Shown here in pieces: positions 17,344 to 36,291 of a stretch of DNA of 36,371 nt. Within the stretch, counting starts at the first letter, position 1; every line of letters begins with the position of its first letter. Made by a program: the position numbers and the translations under genes. Location: IMG/VR virus record IMGVR_UViG_3300037566_000074, positions 1 through 36,371 of that record, one strand, 5' to 3'. Below the pieces are notes generated by a model. The model was given only the letters and a program-made list of their open reading frames with translations. It searched no databases and was not told the origin of the DNA. Source of the stretch: a virus (taxonomy: Duplodnaviria; Caudoviricetes).

Positions 17344-17985
17344 TTATGAATTGTAATTATAAATTAAACATCGAGCTTTACTAAGTGATAAGCTTCGCTC
17401 ATTTTCTTTATTGTCTTCGCCTTTTTGTTCAGCTTTAAAAGCGTCTAGGCTTCGTTTTCCTACGGTTGCATCTTGATATGCTGGGTACGTTACTGGTGAG
17501 ACGTCGTAAAGACGTTCTACTTTTACGATTTGTCTAAGGTCTAACTCGTCTGAACGTTCTTTCCAAATAACTTCTTTTGCTCTAAATGCAAATGATGACT
17601 GTGTTACATCGCCTTTTGCAATAGCATCTTCTAGGTCTTTTGCATAGCTTCGGTCTGGTGTTTCGTAGCGATACTTTAATCCTTCTTCATCTATAGATAG
17701 GGTTAAAGTGCCTTTACCATTTACCGAACGCGCTAAGATTTGGTTAGGATCGTGGTTAAATAAACATCTTACATCGTCGTTAAGAACATCATCAAAAGCA
17801 CCTGGTAGGATTTCTTCTTCAAACCAGTTTGCTATGTTTGTACGACTGTTGAACTTTGCTGCGTGACCTTCTATTACTGATGGTCCTTCTTCTGAGTCTT
17901 CGCGCTTTTCTATTGTTACTGGCGACACAAAGAATCGACGTTCTGCATTTTCTAATGCTGCGATATAGTCTTTTTCTTTACTCAT
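17344..17985 (-). CDS. HK97-family prohead protease
   Basis: IEGHAAKFN, EEILPGAF, LFNHD, GL.Y, SSFAF and LYDVSPVTYPAY. Confidence 0.95.
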   Translation of the reverse strand: MSKEKDYIAALENAERRFFVSPVTIEKREDSEEGPSVIEGHAAKFNSRTNIANWFEEEILPGAFDDVLNDDVRCLFNHDPNQILARSVNGKGTLTLSIDEEGLKYRYETPDRSYAKDLEDAIAKGDVTQSSFAFRAKEVIWKERSDELDLRQIVKVERLYDVSPVTYPAYQDATVGKRSLDAFKAEQKGEDNKENERSLSLSKARCLIYNYNS

Positions 17986-19177
17986 TTTCTTTTTGTATTT
18001 GTGACTGCTGCTGTACTTGTACTGGCTGCAGTGGTTGTGTCATATGATCTAAACCTGTAGAGTTGTAGTCTTCTTTTTCGCGGATTTCATCACCGGATAA
18101 AATGCCACCGTAACGCATTTTTGTGTAATAGTCTGCCTTAGACTTAATGTCTGCTCTTAGTACTGCGTTGGTGTTTGATTTTACATAGTGATCGCGTTTT
18201 TCTGTTGCGTTAAACACTTTGCAGGTGTACTCTTGCTCTAATTGCACTATCCAAGGCATAAGACAATCTTTTAAGTGGTCTATGCTTGCTTGCTCTATAG
18301 TGCTGTAATTATGGTCTGCAGTTTGTTTTAGTTTGTAGGTTGAAATATTAAACCAGCGCGCTATATCTTCGATGGTTATTTTTTTCCAGTCGATTAGCTC
18401 TGCTTCTTTTGCTGATACCTGGATGGATTGCCAGTCCATACCTTCATCTAATACACCTACATTGAACGCGCCACCTCTTGATAGGCGGTTTTCCATACCT
18501 TCTGAAAGGATGCGTTTTCCGTTATCTTTTAAGGATTTATCAGTTTTAATGATTCCTAATCCAAAACCTTTTGAGTCGAAATTAGTTTCTGCAAAGGCTT
18601 CTGCGGTTAATGCTGCGTTTAGGTTTTTTGCGGCATACTTTAATACTGAAACACCTGTGTAACCGTTGGTTGTAAAGCCTTTAAGGTGTAGCACTTCTGA
18701 ATTGTGATAGGTGCCAAACTTTGTAATAAAATAGAGTTCACCTTGGACCATTCTTATATCTTGAAGATCTGTTGGATGCACAAAGTGAAATGCTACAGGC
18801 TGCCCTGTTTGCGGATTGCGAACTATAACCGCTACACCATTACCGCGCAATAGGGCAGTGGCTACTAAGATTTTATGAAAGCTGTATGCTGTCTGGTTTA
18901 GATTTGATTGCTTGGCTATTAAATAGTTTACTGGATGATTGGGCTGTTTTTCTTTTCCGTTGGCTACGTTTTTATAGACTGCTTTTGGAAGGGTTGCGAT
19001 ATCATTGGATATGATATCTACTGCATTATACAAGGCTGATAAGGTTAAGGCTCTGTCTGTTGCTATTGTTGATGCTGTACCAGTGAGTCCGCCAAAAAAA
19101 CTACCAAACACACTATTGCCGCCATTATTTGCGTTTCGCTGTTGTGGTAGGGCGTCTGATAGTAATTTAGCGAGCAT
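17978..19177 (-). CDS. HK97-family portal protein
   Basis: ALYNAVDIISNDIATLP, LLRGNG, EVLHLK, IARWFNI and NYSTIEQ. Confidence 0.95.
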   Translation of the reverse strand: MLAKLLSDALPQQRNANNGGNSVFGSFFGGLTGTASTIATDRALTLSALYNAVDIISNDIATLPKAVYKNVANGKEKQPNHPVNYLIAKQSNLNQTAYSFHKILVATALLRGNGVAVIVRNPQTGQPVAFHFVHPTDLQDIRMVQGELYFITKFGTYHNSEVLHLKGFTTNGYTGVSVLKYAAKNLNAALTAEAFAETNFDSKGFGLGIIKTDKSLKDNGKRILSEGMENRLSRGGAFNVGVLDEGMDWQSIQVSAKEAELIDWKKITIEDIARWFNISTYKLKQTADHNYSTIEQASIDHLKDCLMPWIVQLEQEYTCKVFNATEKRDHYVKSNTNAVLRADIKSKADYYTKMRYGGILSGDEIREKEDYNSTGLDHMTQPLQPVQVQQQSQIQKENE

Positions 19178-19255
19178 AGTTTTTACCTTATACTCGCTAA
19201 ATTATTGGAATAGGTTAGGGTAGTTGTCTAACTTTGTTAGAGTTGTTTAGGTTGG

Positions 19256-19663
19256 TTAATTTTCTATTCTGAAAATAGCATCTTTTAATGATTTTACGGA
19301 TAAATGCAAGTACTGTTGCGTGGTGCTTATTTTCTTATGACCTAATAAGGCTCTTATGTGTTCTATTTCTAATGATGATTCTAATAGGTGCGTGGCCCTG
19401 CTATGTCTTAAATCGTGTAGCCTTATCTTTTTTGTAATACCAGATTTTTTTAAATTGATCTTTAGTACTTTGGTTAAGCTCATTGGGCTATATTGTATTG
19501 AACTCTGACCATTGAATAAATATATTTTTGGTCTGTATTTTTTATAATACAGCCTTAACAGATTGAAACAGTTTTTTGGTACCGGCACCATTCTATCTTT
19601 ACGACCTTTACCGTTTACTATTCTTATAGTTGTTTTTGTTTTACAATGTAAATATAAGCACAT
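19256..19663 (-). pseudogene. 5'-truncated XerD/integron-integrase-like tyrosine recombinase (C-terminal half only)
   Basis: GKGRKDR, YLFNGQ, HDLRHSRATHLLE and LLGH..ISTTQQY are present. The first catalytic Arg box and the N-terminal domain are absent, and the first ~12 codons look like AT-rich intergenic DNA. Confidence 0.8.
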
Positions 19664-19676
19664 TTATTTACATAAC

Positions 19677-19716
19677 CAAATATATTTGTAAATATTTACG
19701 TTTTTATTTACATTTG
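19677..19716. promoter_or_regulatory. Divergent Bacteroidota-type promoters
   Basis: Rightward TTTG(19685-19688)-N20-TACATTTG(19709-19716) before the ATG at 19721, and leftward TATATTTG (19684..19677) inside the palindrome CAAATATATTTG. Confidence 0.6.
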
Positions 19717-19720
19717 TGAT

Positions 19721-19915
19721 ATGAACAAAAGAATAACATCATTTTACACAATCGTTTTAGACAGTAAGGTTATCGCTTTTGGTAACCTTAAAGACATTCA
19801 CTACATATTTAAGAACATCTATCCAGAAGCTCGTAATTATCAATTCTACTATCGCAAGTTTCAAAAAGAGCCTTATTTTGTTTGGGAAGGTTATCACTTT
19901 CAGCAACTCGTATGA
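19721..19915 (+). CDS. Small hypothetical protein, possibly DNA-binding; near-leaderless transcript
   Basis: Canonical promoter 4 nt upstream and hairpin downstream. Confidence 0.65.
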   Translation: MNKRITSFYTIVLDSKVIAFGNLKDIHYIFKNIYPEARNYQFYYRKFQKEPYFVWEGYHFQQLV

Positions 19916-19920
19916 TTACC

Positions 19921-19947
19921 GCAAGAGTTGTAAAAAACAACCCTTGC
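19921..19947. terminator. Hairpin between convergent genes
   Basis: GCAAGAGTTGT-aaaaa-ACAACCCTTGC with one mismatch. Confidence 0.5.
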
Positions 19948-19980
19948 TACGATACAAAATCCACCGTTTTTTTACTTTTT

Positions 19981-20009
19981 CTACTCATATACCAAATCCG
20001 TTAGCCACC
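19981..20009 (-). other. attC-like left half-site (partner arm not found)
   Basis: Minus strand GGTGGCTAAC-ggatttg-GTATATGAGTAG, right after the stop of the 95-aa ORF. Confidence 0.55.
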
Positions 20010-20011
20010 AT

Positions 20012-20299
20012 TTAAGATGACGTTGCTTTGATAATATCACGTTCTTTAGTCATTTCAAAAGCATAGTGCCAGCTTTCATTTGTACCACAAGTCACAGCAT
20101 AGCTAATACCGCTTTCTCGAACATTTATTCCAGTAACAAGTCTTTCAGCCTGTTCAGGGTCAGTTCGTAAATATACGCTATCACCAATATCAAAGTGAAG
20201 AACGTGCTTTTCAAAAACGGTGGCTAACACTGTATAACCGTCAGGCTTAGTGTTTTGCTCTTTTGAAACTTTAGTCTTAGTTACTTTCTTTTCGCTCAT
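20012..20299 (-). CDS. Cassette-encoded hypothetical protein (SH3/KOW-like FDIGDSVYL motif) starting inside an attC-like loop
   Basis: N-terminal KPDGYTVLAT is encoded by the right arm of the site at 20219..20246. Confidence 0.7.
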   Translation of the reverse strand: MSEKKVTKTKVSKEQNTKPDGYTVLATVFEKHVLHFDIGDSVYLRTDPEQAERLVTGINVRESGISYAVTCGTNESWHYAFEMTKERDIIKATSS

Positions 20300-20359
20300 T
20301 TAATAATGTTTTTGTGTTCAGTCGCCCGAACGGTTATACTCGTACGTTGTTGTAGGCAA
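20219..20359 (-). other. attC-like site A
   Basis: Minus strand: TTGCCTACAAC AAC-gtacga-GTATAACCGT(T)CGGGC ... GCCTGACGGTTATAC-agt-GTTAGCCACC, a 15-bp stem with one bulged T and one G.T pair. Confidence 0.7.
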
Positions 20360-20360
20360 T

Positions 20361-20498
20361 TTAATTGCTCGGCTTTTGGCATATATCTTCGCCACACCAC
20401 TCAGAGCAACGCTTAATTCCTTTTGCATAGTTTTCACCTAAGCAATTAAACTGTTCGCTTTGCCCAACAACTACGGGTATAGATAATTTTTTAACTAC
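20361..20498 (-). pseudogene. Start-less ORF remnant VVKKLSIPVVVGQSEQFNCLGENYAKGIKRCSEWCGEDICQKPSN reading through an attC-like right half-site
   Basis: The open frame crosses CTATAC-ccgta-GTTGTTGGGCAA, and its 5' part is replaced by repeat copy 1. Confidence 0.45.
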
Positions 20499-20743
20499 AG
20501 GTTTTTAGTTCGGTTAATTTTTTCCTTTAAGGCATATAGATAAATCGATGTGTATGCAATTGCTACAGCTAATGATATTATTCCAAAAGCAATTGCCTTA
20601 GCTTTTGTTTCTTCAGAATAGTTTAGGTCAACATTTTGAATATTAATAATAGCCACTAACCAAAAGACAATAACATAGCACCATCCAATTATTAAGAATA
20701 ATGTCCCAAATAAAAAATCGGTTGTAATTTTAAATGTTGCCAT
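20495..20743 (-). CDS. Two-TM membrane protein, copy 1 of 3
   Basis: 82 aa with two hydrophobic helices and a basic tail. Confidence 0.75.
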   Translation of the reverse strand: MATFKITTDFLFGTLFLIIGWCYVIVFWLVAIINIQNVDLNYSEETKAKAIAFGIISLAVAIAYTSIYLYALKEKINRTKNL

Positions 20744-20763
20744 AGTGTTTGATATTTACAGTT
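20496..20763. repeat. 268-bp direct repeat, copy 1
   Basis: Identical to 21258..21525 and one substitution away from 22994..23261. Confidence 0.97.
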
Positions 20764-20764
20764 A

Positions 20765-21253
20765 TTAATTACTCGTTTTCATAAAGGACATCCATATTGT
20801 TTTGCTTTGACGACCTGTAGTGTGTCCGAAAAGTGGTTTGTACGGAATTAAGTTTAATATCTCACTTGACTTAATCTCAGATTCATTCCACTTAAATATT
20901 AAAGTGCCATTTGGTTTAAGCACTCTCATACATTCATTAAAGCCTTTTGATAACATTTCTCTCCAATTACCCTCTAATCTTCCGTATTTTTTAGCCATCC
21001 AAGAGGTTTTACCAAGCGTTTTTAAATGAGGTGGGTCGAAAACTACCATGTAAAAAGAATTATCTTCTATAGGTAAGTCTGTGAAGTCCGCAACGACATC
21101 TGGTGCTACTTCAATTATTCTGGTCTTGTCTCTGTCTTTTGCGGTTAAAGTCTCAAACCTTTTGTCTATATACAACACGTCTTGATTTTCTTTATCAAAC
21201 CAAAACATCTTGCTTCCGCAACACGCATCTAATATTTTTTTATCGGTATTCAA
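20765..21253 (-). CDS. Small phage SAM-dependent methyltransferase (probable amino-DNA MTase)
   Basis: ILDACCGSKMFW (motif I), VVFDPPH (motif IV-like) and RVLKPNGTLIFKW. Confidence 0.85.
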   Translation of the reverse strand: MNTDKKILDACCGSKMFWFDKENQDVLYIDKRFETLTAKDRDKTRIIEVAPDVVADFTDLPIEDNSFYMVVFDPPHLKTLGKTSWMAKKYGRLEGNWREMLSKGFNECMRVLKPNGTLIFKWNESEIKSSEILNLIPYKPLFGHTTGRQSKTIWMSFMKTSN

Positions 21254-21256
21254 TTG

Positions 21257-21505
21257 TTACAGGTTTTTAGTTCGGTTAATTTTTTCCTTTAAGGCATATA
21301 GATAAATCGATGTGTATGCAATTGCTACAGCTAATGATATTATTCCAAAAGCAATTGCCTTAGCTTTTGTTTCTTCAGAATAGTTTAGGTCAACATTTTG
21401 AATATTAATAATAGCCACTAACCAAAAGACAATAACATAGCACCATCCAATTATTAAGAATAATGTCCCAAATAAAAAATCGGTTGTAATTTTAAATGTT
21501 GCCAT
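21257..21505 (-). CDS. Two-TM membrane protein, copy 2 of 3
   Basis: Protein identical to copy 1. Confidence 0.75.
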   Translation of the reverse strand: MATFKITTDFLFGTLFLIIGWCYVIVFWLVAIINIQNVDLNYSEETKAKAIAFGIISLAVAIAYTSIYLYALKEKINRTKNL

Positions 21506-21525
21506 AGTGTTTGATATTTACAGTT
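21258..21525. repeat. 268-bp direct repeat, copy 2
   Basis: Offset 762 bp from copy 1. Confidence 0.97.
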
Positions 21526-22987
21526 TTAGTTTACTAATTATTTCAGCGAGTACATCTACTACAATAGAGTTACCAGCTTGTTTATACATTTGAGTATCTG
21601 AGCAAGGCATTTTAAAGCTATCCGGAAACCCCATAAGACGAAAACACTCTCTTGGTGTTAACCTTCGGATTTTGTAATCAGATAATAAAACATTAACCTT
21701 ATTTTCTGTTCTTCCTGCCGGTATGCATCCCATGTGTCCGTTTTCAAAATAGGCTCTATCTTGTTGCGATTTATAACCTTTACCTGATTGATCCCATTGA
21801 ATATAATTCTTGGTAACTACCACATTATCTTTTTGTACGGTTGTTAAGGTATTAGAAGTACCATTAAGATTTAGTTCTAGGCGTTGTTCTGTAGGTAAAC
21901 CTGTTTCTCTACTTGTAGGATTTTCTGGATTACGACCTCTAAGCACACCAATCATTACACCTTGATTACAAGCTGTGTCTAAAGTTTGAGCTACTTCTTT
22001 TCCTACTCGTCCTCTACGAGTCTGGCTATTAGGCTGGCTAAGGTTTATACTATCTCCTTCTTGTGCAACTTCAAAGCCTTTTTTTGTTGCGGATTTTATT
22101 TTTACCGTATCCCAATTATGCTTATCTGTAAATGTGCCTTGACCTCCAGAACGTATAGTATTGGCAATGTCTTTGCCTTGAAAATTGGTTACAGATATAG
22201 CGTTCATCCCTTTATATGTACCACAAGCGTTACCAGGTGTTTGTAATGTGTTGGCTATTTCTGGATCTACTTTTGATTTTTGCAGATTATTTTCATTCTG
22301 TATTATTGATTTTATTGCGCTATCACTCAAAAAATACTTGTTATCTACTTCAGCTTCGAGAACATCTTTTAAACGTTTGTCTAAAAAGTAGGGTTTTGGC
22401 CATGTAAAGGTATTATCTGCATCATCCCTTACACCAACTATAAACACGCGCTCTCTGTTTTGTGGCACTTTATAGTCTTTGGCATTAAGTACCTTCCAAT
22501 ATATATGGTATGGTACGCTATCTTCGTGCGGAAAGAATATAGGATTGCCATTTACGGATTTACCTCCTAAAAGAGTTAACCACTTTGTAAAGGTTTGGCC
22601 CAGATCGTCTTTTGCTGTTTTTTTGTCGTCGCTTAGTAAGCCTTTTACATTCTCGAAAATAAAGTAGCGAGGTTTGTTTTTTTGTATAAACTCGTGGCTA
22701 TTGTAGAATAGTATTCCTCTTTTATCTGCTTCGCCTTCACGTTTTCCGGCTAAACTAAACGCTTGGCAAGGAGGAGAAGTCATGTAAATATCCAGGCTTT
22801 TTTTTGGTATATCTCTGTTGTAAACATTTTCTGGATAATAGTCTGGCTCTCCGTAATTAGCTATATAGGTTTGACGAGCGTATTTATCCATATCACAAGC
22901 AAATACGGTTTTGTGCTTAATGTCTAACTGCATTAATGCTTGTCTAAATGCGCCTACTCCGCTAAAATCTGAGCCTACTTTTATCAT
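21518..22987 (-). CDS. DNA (cytosine-5)-methyltransferase with long variable region
   Basis: FSGVG, SPPCQAFSLAG, FENV, PQNRERVFIVG, RRLTPRECFRLMGFPD and YKQAGNSI. Confidence 0.95.
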   Translation of the reverse strand: MIKVGSDFSGVGAFRQALMQLDIKHKTVFACDMDKYARQTYIANYGEPDYYPENVYNRDIPKKSLDIYMTSPPCQAFSLAGKREGEADKRGILFYNSHEFIQKNKPRYFIFENVKGLLSDDKKTAKDDLGQTFTKWLTLLGGKSVNGNPIFFPHEDSVPYHIYWKVLNAKDYKVPQNRERVFIVGVRDDADNTFTWPKPYFLDKRLKDVLEAEVDNKYFLSDSAIKSIIQNENNLQKSKVDPEIANTLQTPGNACGTYKGMNAISVTNFQGKDIANTIRSGGQGTFTDKHNWDTVKIKSATKKGFEVAQEGDSINLSQPNSQTRRGRVGKEVAQTLDTACNQGVMIGVLRGRNPENPTSRETGLPTEQRLELNLNGTSNTLTTVQKDNVVVTKNYIQWDQSGKGYKSQQDRAYFENGHMGCIPAGRTENKVNVLLSDYKIRRLTPRECFRLMGFPDSFKMPCSDTQMYKQAGNSIVVDVLAEIISKLKL

Positions 22988-22992
22988 TTTAG

Positions 22993-23241
22993 TTACAGGT
23001 TTTTAGTTCGGTTAATTTTTTCCTTTAAGGCATGTAGATAAATCGATGTGTATGCAATTGCTACAGCTAATGATATTATTCCAAAAGCAATTGCCTTAGC
23101 TTTTGTTTCTTCAGAATAGTTTAGGTCAACATTTTGAATATTAATAATAGCCACTAACCAAAAGACAATAACATAGCACCATCCAATTATTAAGAATAAT
23201 GTCCCAAATAAAAAATCGGTTGTAATTTTAAATGTTGCCAT
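22993..23241 (-). CDS. Two-TM membrane protein, copy 3 of 3
   Basis: Differs from the other copies by one residue (YLHAL vs YLYAL). Confidence 0.75.
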   Translation of the reverse strand: MATFKITTDFLFGTLFLIIGWCYVIVFWLVAIINIQNVDLNYSEETKAKAIAFGIISLAVAIAYTSIYLHALKEKINRTKNL

Positions 23242-23261
23242 AGTGTTTGATATTTACAGTT
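22994..23261. repeat. 268-bp direct repeat, copy 3
   Basis: Offset 2498 bp from copy 1, with catgtag instead of catatag (Tyr to His). Confidence 0.97.
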
Positions 23262-24004
23262 TATTTTTTAGCGTTAGTATTGTTATGATTCTTATGATAG
23301 GCTTTGTAATCATAACCTTCATGTTTAAATATTTTATAGATTGATCCTTTTGATATTTGAAATGTTGAGCAGATATCCTCTAAGGTTGTGGTTGGGTTTT
23401 TGTGCATCATTACGACTGCTGCGGATATTTTTTTAAGTTTTTTGCTTAGTCCTTTTGGTCGTCCTAATGAGCCACCCGATTCTTTATATCGTTTGAGTCC
23501 GGCTAATACTTTTTCATTACTTTGCTTTCTAAAGAACTGTCCTATTAGTGCAAATATTCCAAATATTAACTCACCTTCTGCGGTGCGTGTGCTTTCGGTA
23601 TTGATATGCGGATTAGTTAGGTCCTGAAATTCTATTCCTGTTTTTTGAAAGTGTTCTACTAAGGTAAATAGGTATCTTGGATTTCGTCCTAATCTGGTGA
23701 GATCATAAAATACTATTTTGTCGCCTTTACGAAGGACTTTTAATAATTCCTGTAGTTGGTCTCTATCGTCGTTTTTTCCTGAGTCGGTATCTAAATAGAT
23801 GTTTTCTTCTTTGATACCTAAAAGGTTAAATCTATCTACTTGTATGCCTAAGTTTTGATTTTCTGTGCTTACTCTACCATAGGCAAATACTTCTCGCTGG
23901 GTTTTTATACCTTCTGATTTTTGTTGATTTTTAGTGCTTCCTATTGCTTTGCAAGTGTCTAAAAAATCAACTTCGTTTATTTTATCTGTTTCAAGGGTTT
24001 TCAT
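23261..24004 (-). CDS. Small serine recombinase (resolvase/invertase family) with C-terminal HTH
   Basis: FAYGRVST, DSG, LTRLGR, GRP hinge, then an HTH. Start placed at the MKTLE ATG (24004) because the longer TTG start overlaps the upstream gene. Confidence 0.9.
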   Translation of the reverse strand: MKTLETDKINEVDFLDTCKAIGSTKNQQKSEGIKTQREVFAYGRVSTENQNLGIQVDRFNLLGIKEENIYLDTDSGKNDDRDQLQELLKVLRKGDKIVFYDLTRLGRNPRYLFTLVEHFQKTGIEFQDLTNPHINTESTRTAEGELIFGIFALIGQFFRKQSNEKVLAGLKRYKESGGSLGRPKGLSKKLKKISAAVVMMHKNPTTTLEDICSTFQISKGSIYKIFKHEGYDYKAYHKNHNNTNAKK

Positions 24005-24204: not shown

Positions 24205-24461
24205 TTTCTTGTTTTCTTGATGTGTCTTGAGTAAACTATTTGAAATGATACATAGGTTGAGTACATGTACTCTGTATATATTTCGTAGTGTAAATCGTTG
24301 AGTTTATTAAAGCATTCTACCATGTTGCGCGCATAGGGTAATTGATTGAAAAAAGTGTTAAAAAAGTTTTTTGGTTTTGATATTGCTATCACTACTTTTT
24401 CGCGCTCTATCATTGATAAATCGTAATAACTTTCTATCTGCATTAGGTTTAAGTTAGCCAT
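24201..24461 (-). CDS. Hypothetical protein downstream of terminase
   Basis: Start overlaps the terminase stop. Confidence 0.7.
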   Translation of the reverse strand: MANLNLMQIESYYDLSMIEREKVVIAISKPKNFFNTFFNQLPYARNMVECFNKLNDLHYEIYTEYMYSTYVSFQIVYSRHIKKTRK

Positions 24462-26230
24462 TAGATGTATGCTTTGTCTTTGGTGTTATACTGTGATTCT
24501 TTATTGTCTTCTTCTTGGGTTAGGTTTGCCGCTAAGCCCATTACTGCGGCTTGTATTGCGTCTATTCGTTTTTTTGCGTCGGTCTTTATATATCTTACGT
24601 CTTCATTTATTCCGAATTTTACATCTACGTTGGCCATCATCCAACGTAATATTGGATGACCACCGTGTCTTATTTTTCCGTTGTAGAGTAGACGTTCAAA
24701 TTCCATAGTTGGGAATGAGTAGTAATTAATTGTCTGTGGAAACACATACATATTTACTTCTTGCTTCATTAACTCTTGCACAAGCTCTGTTGATTTGTGC
24801 TTATCATAATCTACCCAGCTAACTTTGTGCAACCAATAGGTTTGTAGGATTGTGTTTTTAATATACTCGTAATCTATTTGGTTGCCTGGTGTGGCTGTTA
24901 AGATTTTACGGTTTTGTAAGTAGCTGTATTTTTCTAAATCTTCTGAAGTATAATTTATATAATCTAGTAGGTTAATGTCTTTCCAGTAGGTATATGGTAC
25001 TGCATCTTCTTTTGAGCGTTGACGCACTGTGTCTTCTGGACAGAAGATAAATGGTAGAATATCTACAAAGCCTTCTTCATCTGGTTTGCTTACTAAAACA
25101 TATGCACTTAAATCTGTTGTGCTACTTAGGTCCATACCTGATGCGCAACCGTATTTTGCAAAGTTTGATAATATTGGTTTGGCTGAGTTTTGCATCCATA
25201 TTTCGTCTGGTATTCTTACTTCTGCAGAATCTACCCAAATGTTTAGATGTTTGGTTTTAAAATTTGGTATCTTAGATGGTTGGTTTTTTGCTTTTTTATA
25301 TTCGGCACGTAAATAGTCTAGTGACACTGACTTTCCTAAATTTGGGTTGGCTTTTACCCAATTGGTTTCGTCTTCCCAGTCGTCGTCTTCATCTAAGTCA
25401 TGGATCATTATAAATGTGCGGTCTTCTTCTTTGATGCCTTTTACAATGTCTTTACATACGTCTTCATACTCTTTACAAACTCCGGACTTGTTAAATCCTG
25501 CAGTGGTGATAATGTAAATTAATGGTTGCTTTCTGGCTCCCATTGCTGACTCTAAAACCTCGCGCACTGAGTCGTCTTTATGAGAGTGGTACTCGTCTAT
25601 AAATGATGCGTTTGGCGACAGACCATCTAATGTTTTAGAATCAGATCCTAAAAATCTAAAGACACCCATATTGCGTGTAAAACGAATTTCGCGCTGTGTG
25701 TTTTTAAAACCAATTGCTCTGAGTTTAGGTGATGTAAATACAAATTGATAGGCTTGCTCCCAAAGGATTTTTGCTTGCATTTCTTTTGTGGCGCCTACAT
25801 ATATCTCTGGTGAGGATTCACCATCAAAAGATTCTAAGTATAATCCAACACCGGCAAGCGGTGCTGTTTTTCCGTTTTTCCGTGCTACTTTTTCATATAC
25901 AGTTGTTATAAGTCTAATCCACTCACCAGATTCATTTTGTTTTTGCCATGCAAAAATATTGTAGTATGTAAATTGCTGGTGTGGTGATAATGTAAATGGT
26001 TGACCTGCTTTTGGTCCTTTTGTATGTGTAAGAAACTCGTTAAAAAAATCTATTACATGCATTCCTAGAGAGTGATTTAGCCTATATCCTTTTTGATCTG
26101 CGGATTCTATTAGTTTGTAAAATCTATCTACTGCAGCTTTTATTAATTGGCCAACAACTATTTTACCAGACTTGACTGATTCTGCGTAATGAAATGGTGT
26201 GCTCTGTAATATGTGTTTTTCTAATTTCAT
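24461..26230 (-). CDS. Terminase large subunit
   Basis: ARKNGKT Walker A, FIDEYH Walker B, ITTAG, GMDLSSTTDL and RIDA nuclease motifs. Confidence 0.96.
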   Translation of the reverse strand: MKLEKHILQSTPFHYAESVKSGKIVVGQLIKAAVDRFYKLIESADQKGYRLNHSLGMHVIDFFNEFLTHTKGPKAGQPFTLSPHQQFTYYNIFAWQKQNESGEWIRLITTVYEKVARKNGKTAPLAGVGLYLESFDGESSPEIYVGATKEMQAKILWEQAYQFVFTSPKLRAIGFKNTQREIRFTRNMGVFRFLGSDSKTLDGLSPNASFIDEYHSHKDDSVREVLESAMGARKQPLIYIITTAGFNKSGVCKEYEDVCKDIVKGIKEEDRTFIMIHDLDEDDDWEDETNWVKANPNLGKSVSLDYLRAEYKKAKNQPSKIPNFKTKHLNIWVDSAEVRIPDEIWMQNSAKPILSNFAKYGCASGMDLSSTTDLSAYVLVSKPDEEGFVDILPFIFCPEDTVRQRSKEDAVPYTYWKDINLLDYINYTSEDLEKYSYLQNRKILTATPGNQIDYEYIKNTILQTYWLHKVSWVDYDKHKSTELVQELMKQEVNMYVFPQTINYYSFPTMEFERLLYNGKIRHGGHPILRWMMANVDVKFGINEDVRYIKTDAKKRIDAIQAAVMGLAANLTQEEDNKESQYNTKDKAYI

Positions 26231-28495: not shown

Positions 28496-29150
28496 TTTTC
28501 TTAAATTCTGGTCTAATTACTTTATCATCATTACTCTGGTTAGCATTCAAATACCTAACCCTATTCTTAGCGTACTTTACCAACTCACCAAACAAGTTTT
28601 TAGGATAATCTTTACCATCCCAAGTCAAATCAAAATCTTCAATAAAGCTGTTATAATCAGCATCAGTTTTAAACTGCTTTTTAAAACGCATTTCAAATTC
28701 CTGCTCAAAGCGAGAAGGATAATTAACCTTTAAAAATTCTGAAGCTTTTTCTTTATATATTAAACTTGTATTATTAATTGTAATATTCTCATATATTGAA
28801 GTGACTTTTTCGTCACTAGGTAGTGACTTTTTCGTCACTAGGGTAGTGACTTTTTCGTCACTAGGTAGTGACTTTTTCGTCACTAGGCTAATTTTACGTT
28901 TATTCCCTTGTATCTTATTGACTTTCACATCAATATATCCACGTTCTTCAAGCTGACTAATCCATCTACTAATGGTCTTATGATTTACACCATAAAGCGC
29001 CGCGAAATAATCATTTTGAGCCCAGCAAAAACCCTGAGCACCACACAAGGCAGTTATCTCACCATAAAGCAACTTAGCATTAGCTTTTAGTTTTATATCA
29101 TACCTAACATCTGCAGGTATTATTGCGTAATAATTTGGTTGATTTATCAT
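28488..29150 (-). CDS. Replication initiator (N-terminal HTH, lambda O-like organisation)
   Basis: YYAIIPADVRYD..L...AKLLYGEI..L...GFCWA.N.YFA HTH, internal iterons, upstream of the helicase. Confidence 0.85.
   Translation of the reverse strand: MINQPNYYAIIPADVRYDIKLKANAKLLYGEITALCGAQGFCWAQNDYFAALYGVNHKTISRWISQLEERGYIDVKVNKIQGNKRKISLVTKKSLPSDEKVTTLVTKKSLPSDEKVTSIYENITINNTSLIYKEKASEFLKVNYPSRFEQEFEMRFKKQFKTDADYNSFIEDFDLTWDGKDYPKNLFGELVKYAKNRVRYLNANQSNDDKVIRPEFKKIG
28800..28887. repeat. Four iterons: probable phage replication origin
   Basis: GTGACTTTTTCGTCACTAGG at 28801, 28823, 28846 and 28868, with an AT-rich tract at 28741..28800. Confidence 0.88.
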
Positions 29151-29347
29151 TGTGTCAAGGTTTCAACAGTTTCTCTAAGAGACTTAATCTCTGATCTAAA
29201 ATTCTTAATATCCACAGATGCAAAATGATAATCAGAAGGCAACTCTGGCATATCCATTATTTTTTCAGAAATCTCTATTTCTTTATTCAATTCTGCAATA
29301 CGCTTCTCAATACAGCGTATTGCTTTATAATGTTTTAATTCAGGCAT
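29147..29347 (-). CDS. Small coiled-coil hypothetical protein
   Basis: Coupled to the initiator start. Confidence 0.6.
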   Translation of the reverse strand: MPELKHYKAIRCIEKRIAELNKEIEISEKIMDMPELPSDYHFASVDIKNFRSEIKSLRETVETLTQ

Positions 29348-33997: not shown

Positions 33998-34134
33998 TAC
34001 ACACAACGAATTTGTATAAGATTAGGTGCTAAATTCGGCAGAATTTACACCGTATAAACAAGAACAAAACATTGAATTAAACATTAACTTTAAAAAAGTC
34101 CACAAGCACTTAATTTTATACGGTGTTATGTGGC
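33998..34134 (+). other. attC-like site 1
   Basis: TACACACAAC-gaattt-GTATAAGATTAGGTGCT ... AGCACTTAATTTTATAC-ggt-GTTATGTGGC, a 17-bp stem (15 Watson-Crick plus 2 G.T). Confidence 0.72.
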
Positions 34135-34144
34135 GTTATTTAAG

Positions 34145-34369
34145 ATGATTGTAATTAAGAAAGTAGCGGATAGAAAATTAGAAACAGACGTTGAATTAAA
34201 CACTGATTGTTTTTGCCCTAATTGTGGTGAAAAAGAAGTTTATACTGCTATTGGTGAAGGTGATTATTATGAAGGACCTTATAATTATTGCAAAAACTGC
34301 AAATGTGCGTTTACTATGCCTTCTTGTGGTGTAGATGAAAATATAGAATTTATTTCTAATGCCACATAA
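34145..34369 (+). CDS. Cassette-encoded zinc-ribbon protein
   Basis: CPNCG...CKNCK. The TAA stop lies inside GCCACATAAC, and ATG 34145 is preferred over GTG 34130. Confidence 0.75.
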   Translation: MIVIKKVADRKLETDVELNTDCFCPNCGEKEVYTAIGEGDYYEGPYNYCKNCKCAFTMPSCGVDENIEFISNAT

Positions 34370-34873
34370 CGGTGTAGCTATGAGTAGTGCGGGCATTACA
34401 GCACTGACCTAAATACGAGTATTAACCGCTCCCGCTTCTTTTTTGAGCGTGGGCAAAAACGAAAATAAAATGGAAACTATAATTGAAAGAAAAGACATTA
34501 CTGAAGAAACTTACCGCGAAATACTTGATGTTGAAACGCATCACAACCACCCAATAATTAAAGACGAAAACGGCACTTTAAGGTGGAAGGAAAACAAGGA
34601 CACTTGTAAGTTTCTTAGAAACATTTCACTTAATGATTTATGCCCTTTACTGAATAGTTTGGGGTATGATAAGAACTCTGAACCATACAGACAGCTTTAC
34701 CGAAATATGGGGTATTCGCTTTTTGGGTATTGGGAAATATTCTATTGGGAAGTGAATAATGAAGGTGCTGAAGAATATACGCCAAATGAAATGTGCGTTG
34801 GGAAAAAAGAAGCATAGCACAGACCTTACTACGAGCTACGACACCCGCATTACTTATAGCTGATGTTGTAGCA
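34361..34873 (+). other. attC-like site 2 with a whole gene in its loop
   Basis: GCCACATAAC-ggtgt-AGCTATGAGTAGTGCGGG ... CCCGCATTACTTATAGCT-gat-GTTGTAGCA, an 18-bp stem (16 Watson-Crick plus 2 G.T). Confidence 0.7.
34470..34817 (+). CDS. Hypothetical protein nested in attC-like site 2
   Basis: ATG 34470 follows an A-rich leader (the track uses TTG 34443); DENGTLRWKEN...GYSLFGYWEIF. Confidence 0.75.
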   Translation: METIIERKDITEETYREILDVETHHNHPIIKDENGTLRWKENKDTCKFLRNISLNDLCPLLNSLGYDKNSEPYRQLYRNMGYSLFGYWEIFYWEVNNEGAEEYTPNEMCVGKKEA

Positions 34874-34884
34874 TCGTTTTAATG

Positions 34885-34952
34885 TGCTACAACACCAAGC
34901 TATGAAACGTTGCGAGGCACGAGCTATGATTTATAGCGACTGTTGTGGGTAG
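34885..34952 (+). other. attC-like site 3 (compact, 68 bp)
   Basis: TGCTACAAC-accaa-GCTATGAAacgttgc-gaggcacga-gctatgaTTTATAGC-gact-GTTGTGGGTAG. Confidence 0.72.
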
Positions 34953-34967
34953 TTATTCAAAAAAAAA

Positions 34968-36116
34968 TCATAACAGCGAAATTATTTTCTCATGTGCCGC
35001 ATCGCGCACACTGAGCGGAAACTCATTAGTATAAATACTATGCGTGCTTTGTTGTGCATGGCCCACCAATTCCATGGTAATACGTTCATCTATTAGCATC
35101 TGTTGCGCTCTATTAATAAAAGAGTAGCGCGCACCTTTAGTCAGCACACGCACACCAAGCCTTAGATCCTTAATATAATCATTAAGCCGATCATTCATAT
35201 TGCTTACAAAATCATTCTGAGATTTATACTTATGTATTGGCACCAGGTAAGGATAACAGCCAAAACGCTTTAGCAATGCCTCAGCTTCAGGAAAAATCTT
35301 ATTGTTTATATACACACTCGTACCACCTTTAAAACGGTAAAACTGCACACGCCCATCATTAACATGCTCATCATAGCGCAGATTAGCCAAATCAATAGCA
35401 TCAATACCACCAAGGTAAAACATAAGCATAAAATAATAGCGGTAAGCATTAATACTATCTATAGAGCTTTTATAATCGTGCTTGTTTAAAAGAGTCCTGG
35501 TAAAAAACAACTTTTTCAGTTGCGCATCGTTAAGATGCTTAGATTTGGTTTGCTCTTTTTTAGGGCGCACACCCTCAAAAGGATTAGGTAAATGCAAAGG
35601 CTTCACCTTATTAAAAATAGCATTCAAAGTACGCATATAGGTATGCACACCATTAGGCTTATTGGTTTTTAAAAGTGCAGACATATAAGCATTAGCATCA
35701 CTTTTAGTAATTGCTTCAATAGCCACACCAGGAAAGGCCGCATTAAAACTATTCAAAACCGTTTCGTACAATTTACCATTAGTGCTACCATCTACCAAAA
35801 CCAAACCAGCATCATAAAACGCGCCAGATTGCGCCTTAATCTTACCAAACAATAACTGCTTGGCATCAGCATAACTGTAACGTTGGGTATTAATATCCGC
35901 AATAATACTTTTTTGATTCAACAGATCCGCAATTAACAAATCATATTCCGGATGCTGTTTTGTAATGGTTTCAGTAGCATCATTCCAATGCTCAGGCTGG
36001 CATCTAAAAATTGTTTTCTTAACAGGAGATTTACCAGAACATCTTAAAATTTTATATACCGGAAAACCATTAGCATTTGGTTTCTGACTCAATTCTAATT
36101 TTAAAGATGCCTTCAT
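34968..36116 (-). CDS. Prophage integrase (Bacteroidota-type tyrosine recombinase)
   Basis: Adjacent to att. N-terminal arm-binding-like region, then GGIDAIDL, RFKG, TKGARYSF and LVGH...IY. Confidence 0.88.
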   Translation of the reverse strand: MKASLKLELSQKPNANGFPVYKILRCSGKSPVKKTIFRCQPEHWNDATETITKQHPEYDLLIADLLNQKSIIADINTQRYSYADAKQLLFGKIKAQSGAFYDAGLVLVDGSTNGKLYETVLNSFNAAFPGVAIEAITKSDANAYMSALLKTNKPNGVHTYMRTLNAIFNKVKPLHLPNPFEGVRPKKEQTKSKHLNDAQLKKLFFTRTLLNKHDYKSSIDSINAYRYYFMLMFYLGGIDAIDLANLRYDEHVNDGRVQFYRFKGGTSVYINNKIFPEAEALLKRFGCYPYLVPIHKYKSQNDFVSNMNDRLNDYIKDLRLGVRVLTKGARYSFINRAQQMLIDERITMELVGHAQQSTHSIYTNEFPLSVRDAAHEKIISLL

Positions 36117-36244: not shown

Positions 36245-36291
36245 TGTGATCGCGACAGGATTCGAACCTGTGACCGTCTGCTTAGAAGGCA
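36245..36291. repeat. Right att core
   Basis: Identical to 81..127. Confidence 0.97.

Follow-up and report, generated by a model that had tools for sequence, protein, structure and literature searches.

The locus near 20 kb of the viral DNA studied here is a two-cassette array and probably a decayed part of an integron-like platform of Bacteroidota phages, which would be run by a short tyrosine recombinase that another phage would now have to supply in trans. The window, i.e., the whole stretch of 36,371 nucleotides that was analysed, is a 36.4-kb virus record with a 47-bp direct repeat at 81–127 and 36245–36291, which overlaps a tRNA-Arg, and it encodes head and tail genes plus the prophage's own integrase. 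Relatives point to hosts among the Flavobacteriaceae. The region 18800–20525 was found intact on one contig, with zero differences, in two runs that are possibly the window's own source; as far as contigs show, it is no assembly artefact. Three other runs used below (X5, X7 and X10) are other samples with small shares only, too small for a claim on habitat. The coordinates of the features are collected in Table 1.

Table 1. Features of the array at 20 kb and its surroundings (window coordinates).
Feature	Position	Strand	Description
Accessory block with site array	between terminase (24461–26230) and portal (17978–19177)		contains a resolvase, two DNA methyltransferases and a triplicated 278-bp unit
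Recombinase stub, C-terminal half, 124 aa	19256–19630	−	short XerC/D-like tyrosine recombinase
Promoter-like/leader segment of another gene	19624–19700	−	joined to the stub at 19623/19624
64-aa ORF, function unassigned	19721–19915	+	between array and stub; antisense ORF of L168 at the same place
Retained loop start of a large-loop site	19911–19980	−	common to L168 and L181
Left half-site	19981–20002	−	5′ arm (AAC, 7-nt spacer, stem), attC-like; partner arm absent
Cassette 1 body	20000–20228	.	perfect 10-bp complementary ends; predicted crossover between G and TT at 20000/20001
95-aa gene	20012–20299	−	28-aa leader (site loop and 3′ arm) fused to a beta-rich body of about 65 aa
Full attC-like site	20226–20348	−	AAC, 6-nt spacer, 10-bp stem, loop with start codon, stem, 3-nt spacer, GTT
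Cassette 2 body	20349–20471	.	conserved ends with inner inverted repeat; variable interior
Right half-site	20469–20490	−	3′ arm; 5′ arm and loop gone; abuts the triplicated 278-bp unit
278-bp unit (82-aa gene), one of three copies	20496–20773	−	copies flank two DNA methyltransferase genes
Second array, same site family	34005–34944	+ (gene-sense)	adjoins the prophage integrase (34968–36116), a different enzyme

Generic measures do not set the full site apart. A generic hairpin detector did not single it out (23 matches in the window vs. 10–21 in 8 shuffles), its folding energy is unremarkable (z = −1.18 on the minus strand and −0.30 on the plus strand), and perfect 10-bp GTT..AAC ends, taken by themselves, do not exceed chance significantly (3 in the window, 1.5 per shuffle). 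A family-specific detector, based on the site geometry of other phages, reported exactly three sites, i.e., 20226–20348 on the minus strand and 34005–34127 and 34368–34867 on the plus strand; 60 shuffles averaged 0.18 sites and never gave more than 1. By an arm weight matrix built from 118 sites of other loci, the left half-site is the top-scoring arm of the window, at 23.4 bits with 0.01 expected per shuffle, and the 3′ arm of the full site scores 17.4 bits (0.02 expected), the 5′ arm of the full site falls outside the top 14 in the window, and the right half-site, at 9.7 bits with about 10 expected, does not reach significance. For the right half-site, support comes from its homology to complete sites in other loci: it matches L184, where the site is complete, at 84% over 50 nt, and phage phi19:3 at 85% over 46 nt. 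A pattern scan with the left arm gave four matches (one in the same phage, one informative and two likely due to chance), and one with the right arm gave two (one in the same phage and one due to chance). The attC-like sites in the window are real. The motifs that the first-pass annotation had quoted are all present at the positions it gave them, and its description of box-delimited cassettes with the grammar of the 34-kb array holds, both arrays belonging to the same site family by the detector.

The full site shows the AAC...GTT R boxes around an imperfect palindrome. Sites of the family have 6–7/3 spacers and an unbroken first stem of at least 10 bp, by a detector that demands an unbroken stem so that bulged sites would escape it; this is not the canonical attC R–L spacing with two extrahelical bases on one arm, and the control aadA7 differs in this respect. 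Family spacing assigns the box at 20346–20348 to the full site, while the box at 20349–20351 repeats it in tandem and closes cassette 2. Such tandem AAC–AAC boxes at cassette/site junctions, which span 20346–20351 in the window, were also observed near 29234 and 37260 of Polaribacter phage P12002L (L177), and are possibly the footprint of an insertion offset by 3 nt. Cassette 2 contains a Cys-containing reading frame without a start codon. The complementarity of its ends is imperfect, and these ends are common to phi19:3 and L184; a contig of another sample (X7 record 20) matches 20348–20369 and 20441–20471, with 32 other bases in between. At 20 kb, the gene-sense strand is the minus strand, which likely also folds as the "bottom" strand. 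In the second array, the site at 34368–34867 spans 500 nt and contains an entire 115-aa gene (34470–34817) in its loop; the next cassette, of about 25 nt (34865–34889), is nearly empty. The neighbouring prophage integrase was considered as the cassette enzyme and rejected, as it carries arm-binding and SAM domains and adjoins attR.

The start codon of the 95-aa gene falls within the loop of its upstream site, whose loop and 3′ arm encode the 28-aa leader. Among its 39 protein homologues there are four leader types: 34 carry one of the four site-encoded leaders, 3 consist of the body without leader or boxes, 1 has part of the body joined to a methyltransferase-like start, and 1 has the window's leader on another body. 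Judged from these proteins, relatives exchange leader and body independently of each other. The 95-aa protein gave zero matches in Pfam, PHROG and NCBIfam, and its fold model is too poor for searching (pLDDT 48); a structure atlas returned unnamed viral clusters, with the SH3-like R67 family (0.86) as a lead only.

At the DNA level, five loci related to the 95-aa gene were found, one of which is the same phage. One of them (L002) matches 20000–20348 and differs past both boxes; two (L004 and L005) share only the full site (84% over 142 nt), which sits there between other cassettes with the same leader on another gene; and one (L003) has the gene body without boxes. Contigs from other samples, among the matches listed, break at 19999 (X7), at 20001 (X10), at 20348 and twice at 20471, one breaks inside the full site at 20340, and other matches to the right half-site run on to 20481–20488. 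These comparative breakpoints are those of a cassette moving as a unit with the boxes as its ends, and they demonstrate, at the level of compared sequences, that related phages swap sequence at the GTT/AAC boxes. The first-pass annotation had proposed to examine whether homology to the 95-aa gene starts and stops at these boxes and had named box-free homologues among the findings that would speak against it: close homologues do start and end there, and box-free homologues exist as a minority (3/39 proteins and locus L003). In the runs containing the window phage, whose contigs drop rare variants, no joint was seen at any box, and a circular cassette form was not seen either. A further observation comes from X10 record 1, in which a relative's cassette meets unrelated, GC-richer sequence precisely at the predicted crossover (20001); it is a single contig from an RNA library and possibly a chimera, and its presence there was not taken as transcription, which contig presence does not show.

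In the most likely mechanism, site-specific recombination by the short recombinase, the gene-sense strand would fold and act as the recombining "bottom" strand, with the crossover placed between G and TT on the other strand, at 20000/20001 and 20346/20347. Because the crossover is placed there, each gene would travel with its upstream site, which is the source of its start codon. The polarity statistic, for which 182 parsed cassette bodies yielded 3 homologous pairs, only 1 of them informative, is consistent with this: the window–L002 pair keeps the upstream site (0.76) and not the downstream one (0.39; random 95th percentile 0.54). The genes would thus run opposite to the usual integron direction, while the recombinase, like that of classical integrons, faces away from the array. 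The same body is found behind four leaders, so that it must at times be separated from its upstream site, and leader swaps would need an extra route, e.g., the other box being used now and then, or homologous recombination between phages. In a Polaribacter prophage (L181), cassettes are duplicated within one array (98–597 and 1906–2139/4587–4820), as expected from replicative cassette insertion.

The recombinase stub lacks the N-terminal domain, the first catalytic Arg (R127 of the intact relative P0040) and the IntI insertion, and is predicted to be inactive; a 135-aa ORF called from 19663 is the stub fused to unrelated leader DNA. Its intact relatives (P0040–P0045) are 267–288 aa long and 61–69% identical to it. 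Compared with a true IntI (P0076: 387 bits, cut-off 265), the stub and these relatives are short by about 42 aa of the IntI insertion, and their TIGR02249 scores against the same cut-off are 66 for the stub and 116–141, in two stretches, for the intact relatives. The first-pass annotation had called the gene an integron-integrase-like remnant, a label that does not fit proteins without the IntI insertion and so far under the cut-off. The best profile matches are XerC/XerD and the archaeal XerA-type (NF040815, TIGR02224, TIGR02225), which likewise have no IntI insertion; the stub and its relatives all fall under the curated cut-offs, the intact relatives scoring 134–155 against XerC/XerD cut-offs of 330–335. 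A tree of the stub's 124 columns, drawing on 22 of the 74 viral loci described below, places the stub inside the close clade that is linked to arrays (FastTree support 0.915). This agrees with the first-pass annotation in that the stub comes from a recombinase clade found beside such arrays, in the same orientation.

Intact relatives were taken from the best 80 of 543 viral matches, which gave 74 loci after dereplication. In these best-matching loci, hairpins with 6/3 or 7/3 spacers number 78 upstream of the recombinase (210 kb) vs. 3 downstream (287 kb). Among loci with at least 1.5 kb upstream, shorter ones being excluded, sites lie upstream in 36 of 53 viral loci, in 6/6 closer relatives and in 0/49 distant tyrosine recombinases, a control set supplied by a metagenome scan that gave distant recombinases only; the opposite strand gave 0. 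Relatives with an intact recombinase beside such sites, for which the first-pass annotation had suggested a search, therefore exist, and the other 17 of the 53 viral loci have no site by the family detector. The G·T wobbles at 91 sites fall on the integrase-sense strand at 81, on the other strand at 5 and on neither at 5, a bias (81 vs. 5) that points, only indirectly, to strand-selective recombination as folded ssDNA. Of 72 loci, 52 have an attI-like motif 20–130 nt ahead of the recombinase match, compared with 39 of 2521 control windows that contain it; the regular expression was derived from the same loci that it scores, and the 52/72 is thus partly circular. As read from their sequences, the intact relatives are arranged with the array first, then the attI-like site and then the recombinase. 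L008, which among the viral contigs encodes the closest intact relative (61%), shows the attI-like motif, and no array is evident within the 401 nt upstream; in another locus (L185), a promoter module interrupts the array upstream of the intact enzyme. Related sites or genes also occur in five records, including two complete ones, that do not encode such a recombinase. In phi19:3 (L174:1225–3624), what is annotated as a series of small hypothetical genes is an array of cassettes belonging to this family; it stops before a 418-aa tyrosine recombinase, which gave no match to P0040 at the threshold used.

The first-pass annotation described the array as integrase-proximal and truncated on both sides. 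Truncation applies to the right end, as no 5′ arm of the right half-site was found within 5 kb and the frame of cassette 2 is startless. The left half-site has no partner arm within 3 kb either; its arm with about 100 nt of loop is complete in L181 as a full site with a loop of about 620 nt, and the same segment ends the array in L168/G001, a complete phage without this recombinase. Because the same end closes the array in L168/G001, the left half-site is read as an inherited array end rather than as a truncation. An intact attI was rejected for it: by score its arm belongs with attC, the motif of attI is different, and the complete site is present in L181. Past the shared half-site, L168/G001 continues with an antisense ORF (80 aa) and then a promoter-like element; beyond this module and element, G001 (L199:1520–1640) has a tRNA-like sequence whose middle part is unusually long, and then short repeated motifs.

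Proximity to the integrase is not supported. The 64-aa gene and the promoter-like/leader segment stand between array and stub, an attI-like motif was not found in 19601–20010, and a relative in another sample (X5 record 11) is identical over 19624–19829 and then enters a different gene start. The stub junction was set at 19623/19624 because this relative reads on into a different gene there, and a 7-nt overlap at 19624–19630 suggests microhomology. The leader segment resembles an element in L168; it is a putative promoter by reference to the −7 promoter consensus of Bacteroidota. A hairpin at about 19911–19952 (folding z = −2.49) is a possible terminator of the 64-aa ORF. Scans with the portal and the 64-aa gene returned no close relative with an intact locus, the same phage excepted. 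By comparison with L185, where a promoter module interrupts the array, the array at 20 kb may be what remains of the distal part in a compound array, with this particular stub as its putative enzyme. The history would include a deletion, joined at 19623/19624, that brought the leader of a gene up against the mid-part of the recombinase and took out that gene, the attI, any adjacent cassettes and the first half of the enzyme. At the other end, the 278-bp unit and the methyltransferase genes would have severed the array, the unit likely taking the place of its upstream part, and the left half-site would have been inherited as the array end.

The triplication of the 278-bp unit, whose product is an 82-aa hydrophobic protein and whose other copies lie at 21258–21535 and 22994–23271, is backed by threefold depth. 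A contig (L001/L006) that is otherwise identical to the window lacks one copy and a 162-aa methyltransferase, reflecting either assembly collapse or a genuine loss between repeats. Elsewhere in the window, the replication initiator gene has four copies of a 22–23-nt repeat at 28800–28889, likely origin iterons.

Clusters of attC sites without an integrase (CALINs) have been found in phages including P12002L (Qi et al. 2023, PMC9892861), and, in the available parts of that paper, IntI1 recombined 5/6 tested phage sites, the exception being P12002L_attC1, which was not verifiably recombined. The bottom strand listed there for this site shows the 6/3 geometry and, in that genome, corresponds to the gene-sense strand. 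P12002L_attC2, which IntI1 recombined, is the phage's array-end element on the opposite strand, and this speaks against the reading favoured here. Of the detector matches in the P12002L genome, 7/9 on the minus strand begin like family sites and 0/4 on the plus strand. P12002L thus resembles the window in having attC-like clusters beside DNA methyltransferase genes in a Bacteroidota phage and the 6/3 geometry in attC1; the same parts of the paper do not mention loop start codons, an attI-like site or a cognate short recombinase, whereas the window retains an enzyme remnant. CALINs have two or more attC-like sites and no integron integrase nearby; the 20-kb locus offers one full site and two half-sites, and no IntI is present among the 42 scanned ORFs of the window.

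With classical integrons, as presented in the available parts of PMC8946536, PMC3053210, PMC4889954, PMC8352920 and PMC7790495, the phage platform shares the AAC...GTT boxes around a palindrome, the strand asymmetry, the exchange at the boxes and a primary site at the end of the array, next to a tyrosine recombinase directed away from it. In contrast, the phage recombinase is about 42 aa shorter, without the additional IntI domain, and the phage sites have 6–7/3 spacers and no extrahelical base in the first stem. The phage genes are inverted and start inside the site, with loops of up to about 600 nt that can hold whole genes; the order of a gene followed by its own attC on the top strand is not found, as the genes lie on the inferred bottom strand. 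The isolated phages Leef_1 and Ingeline (Bartlau et al., PMC8776804) have two integrases each and, unlike the window, intact platforms. In both, hairpin sites and an attI-like motif precede the integrase that is related to the stub clade (44% and 35% identical to P0040), and the paper, in its available parts, reads the integrases as signs of lysogeny and does not use the words "integron" or "cassette". The literature searched, which included few subscription papers, contained no description of the short-recombinase platform; only integrase-less clusters were described.

The sites might alternatively be repeated expression modules, i.e., a leader plus a terminator hairpin, which are moved by homologous or illegitimate recombination with no site-specific enzyme, like the T4-type PeSL cassettes, which are expression modules shuffled in this way. 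The start codons and leaders in the loops, the separate exchange of leaders and bodies and the energetically unremarkable folding of the full site fit such modules. However, breakpoints fall at 3-nt boxes between sites of differing sequence, and the spacer lengths, the strand-biased wobbles and the linkage to a single recombinase clade are all conserved, and this account is considered improbable. The reading of the locus as an ordinary CALIN served by a canonical host IntI, with the stub as an unrelated Xer-like neighbour, is likewise given little credence. The published phage CALINs, one of them in a Polaribacter phage, and the 5/6 phage sites recombined by IntI1 (PMC9892861) speak for it, as do complete phages that carry such sites and no short recombinase and the gap between array and stub; yet arrays and an attI-like site closely accompany the stub clade, and the sites are of the 6/3 type without an extrahelical base in the first stem, for which the published example is the very one not verified with IntI1.

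A different question is whether the left half-site is debris or a working secondary docking site that anchors integrase-less arrays. The same end closes the G001 array, P12002L closes two arrays with one repeated half-site element, and different cassettes adjoin the left half-site in the window and in L168, all of which would suit a docking site. However, the half-site matches the attC arm class and not attI, it is complete in L181, and a relic arm would also be expected to stay while upstream cassettes change, so that a docking function is considered unlikely.

The platform would function like an integron, yet it has neither the IntI domain nor the canonical attC geometry, and the window copy is also without attI. 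Being a decayed copy, the window locus is of value in linking the site family to the published negative result with IntI1 and in showing how platforms decay. Beyond this locus, the evidence is about evenly balanced on whether Bacteroidota phages run their own integron, in which a tyrosine recombinase free of the I2 helix would act on folded ssDNA sites by an independent or ancestral route, leader–body pairing would make new proteins, and integrase-less arrays would be editable in trans via inherited half-sites. In the available parts of PMC7790495, the I2 helix is described as the acquisition that enabled integron integrases to recombine single-stranded sites, and an array-linked enzyme without this helix, if it acts on sites that IntI1 apparently does not recombine, would make that claim directly testable; Leef_1 is a cultured phage with an intact platform. 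If true, such a phage-run integron would explain how flavobacterial phages restock their small genes and methyltransferases.
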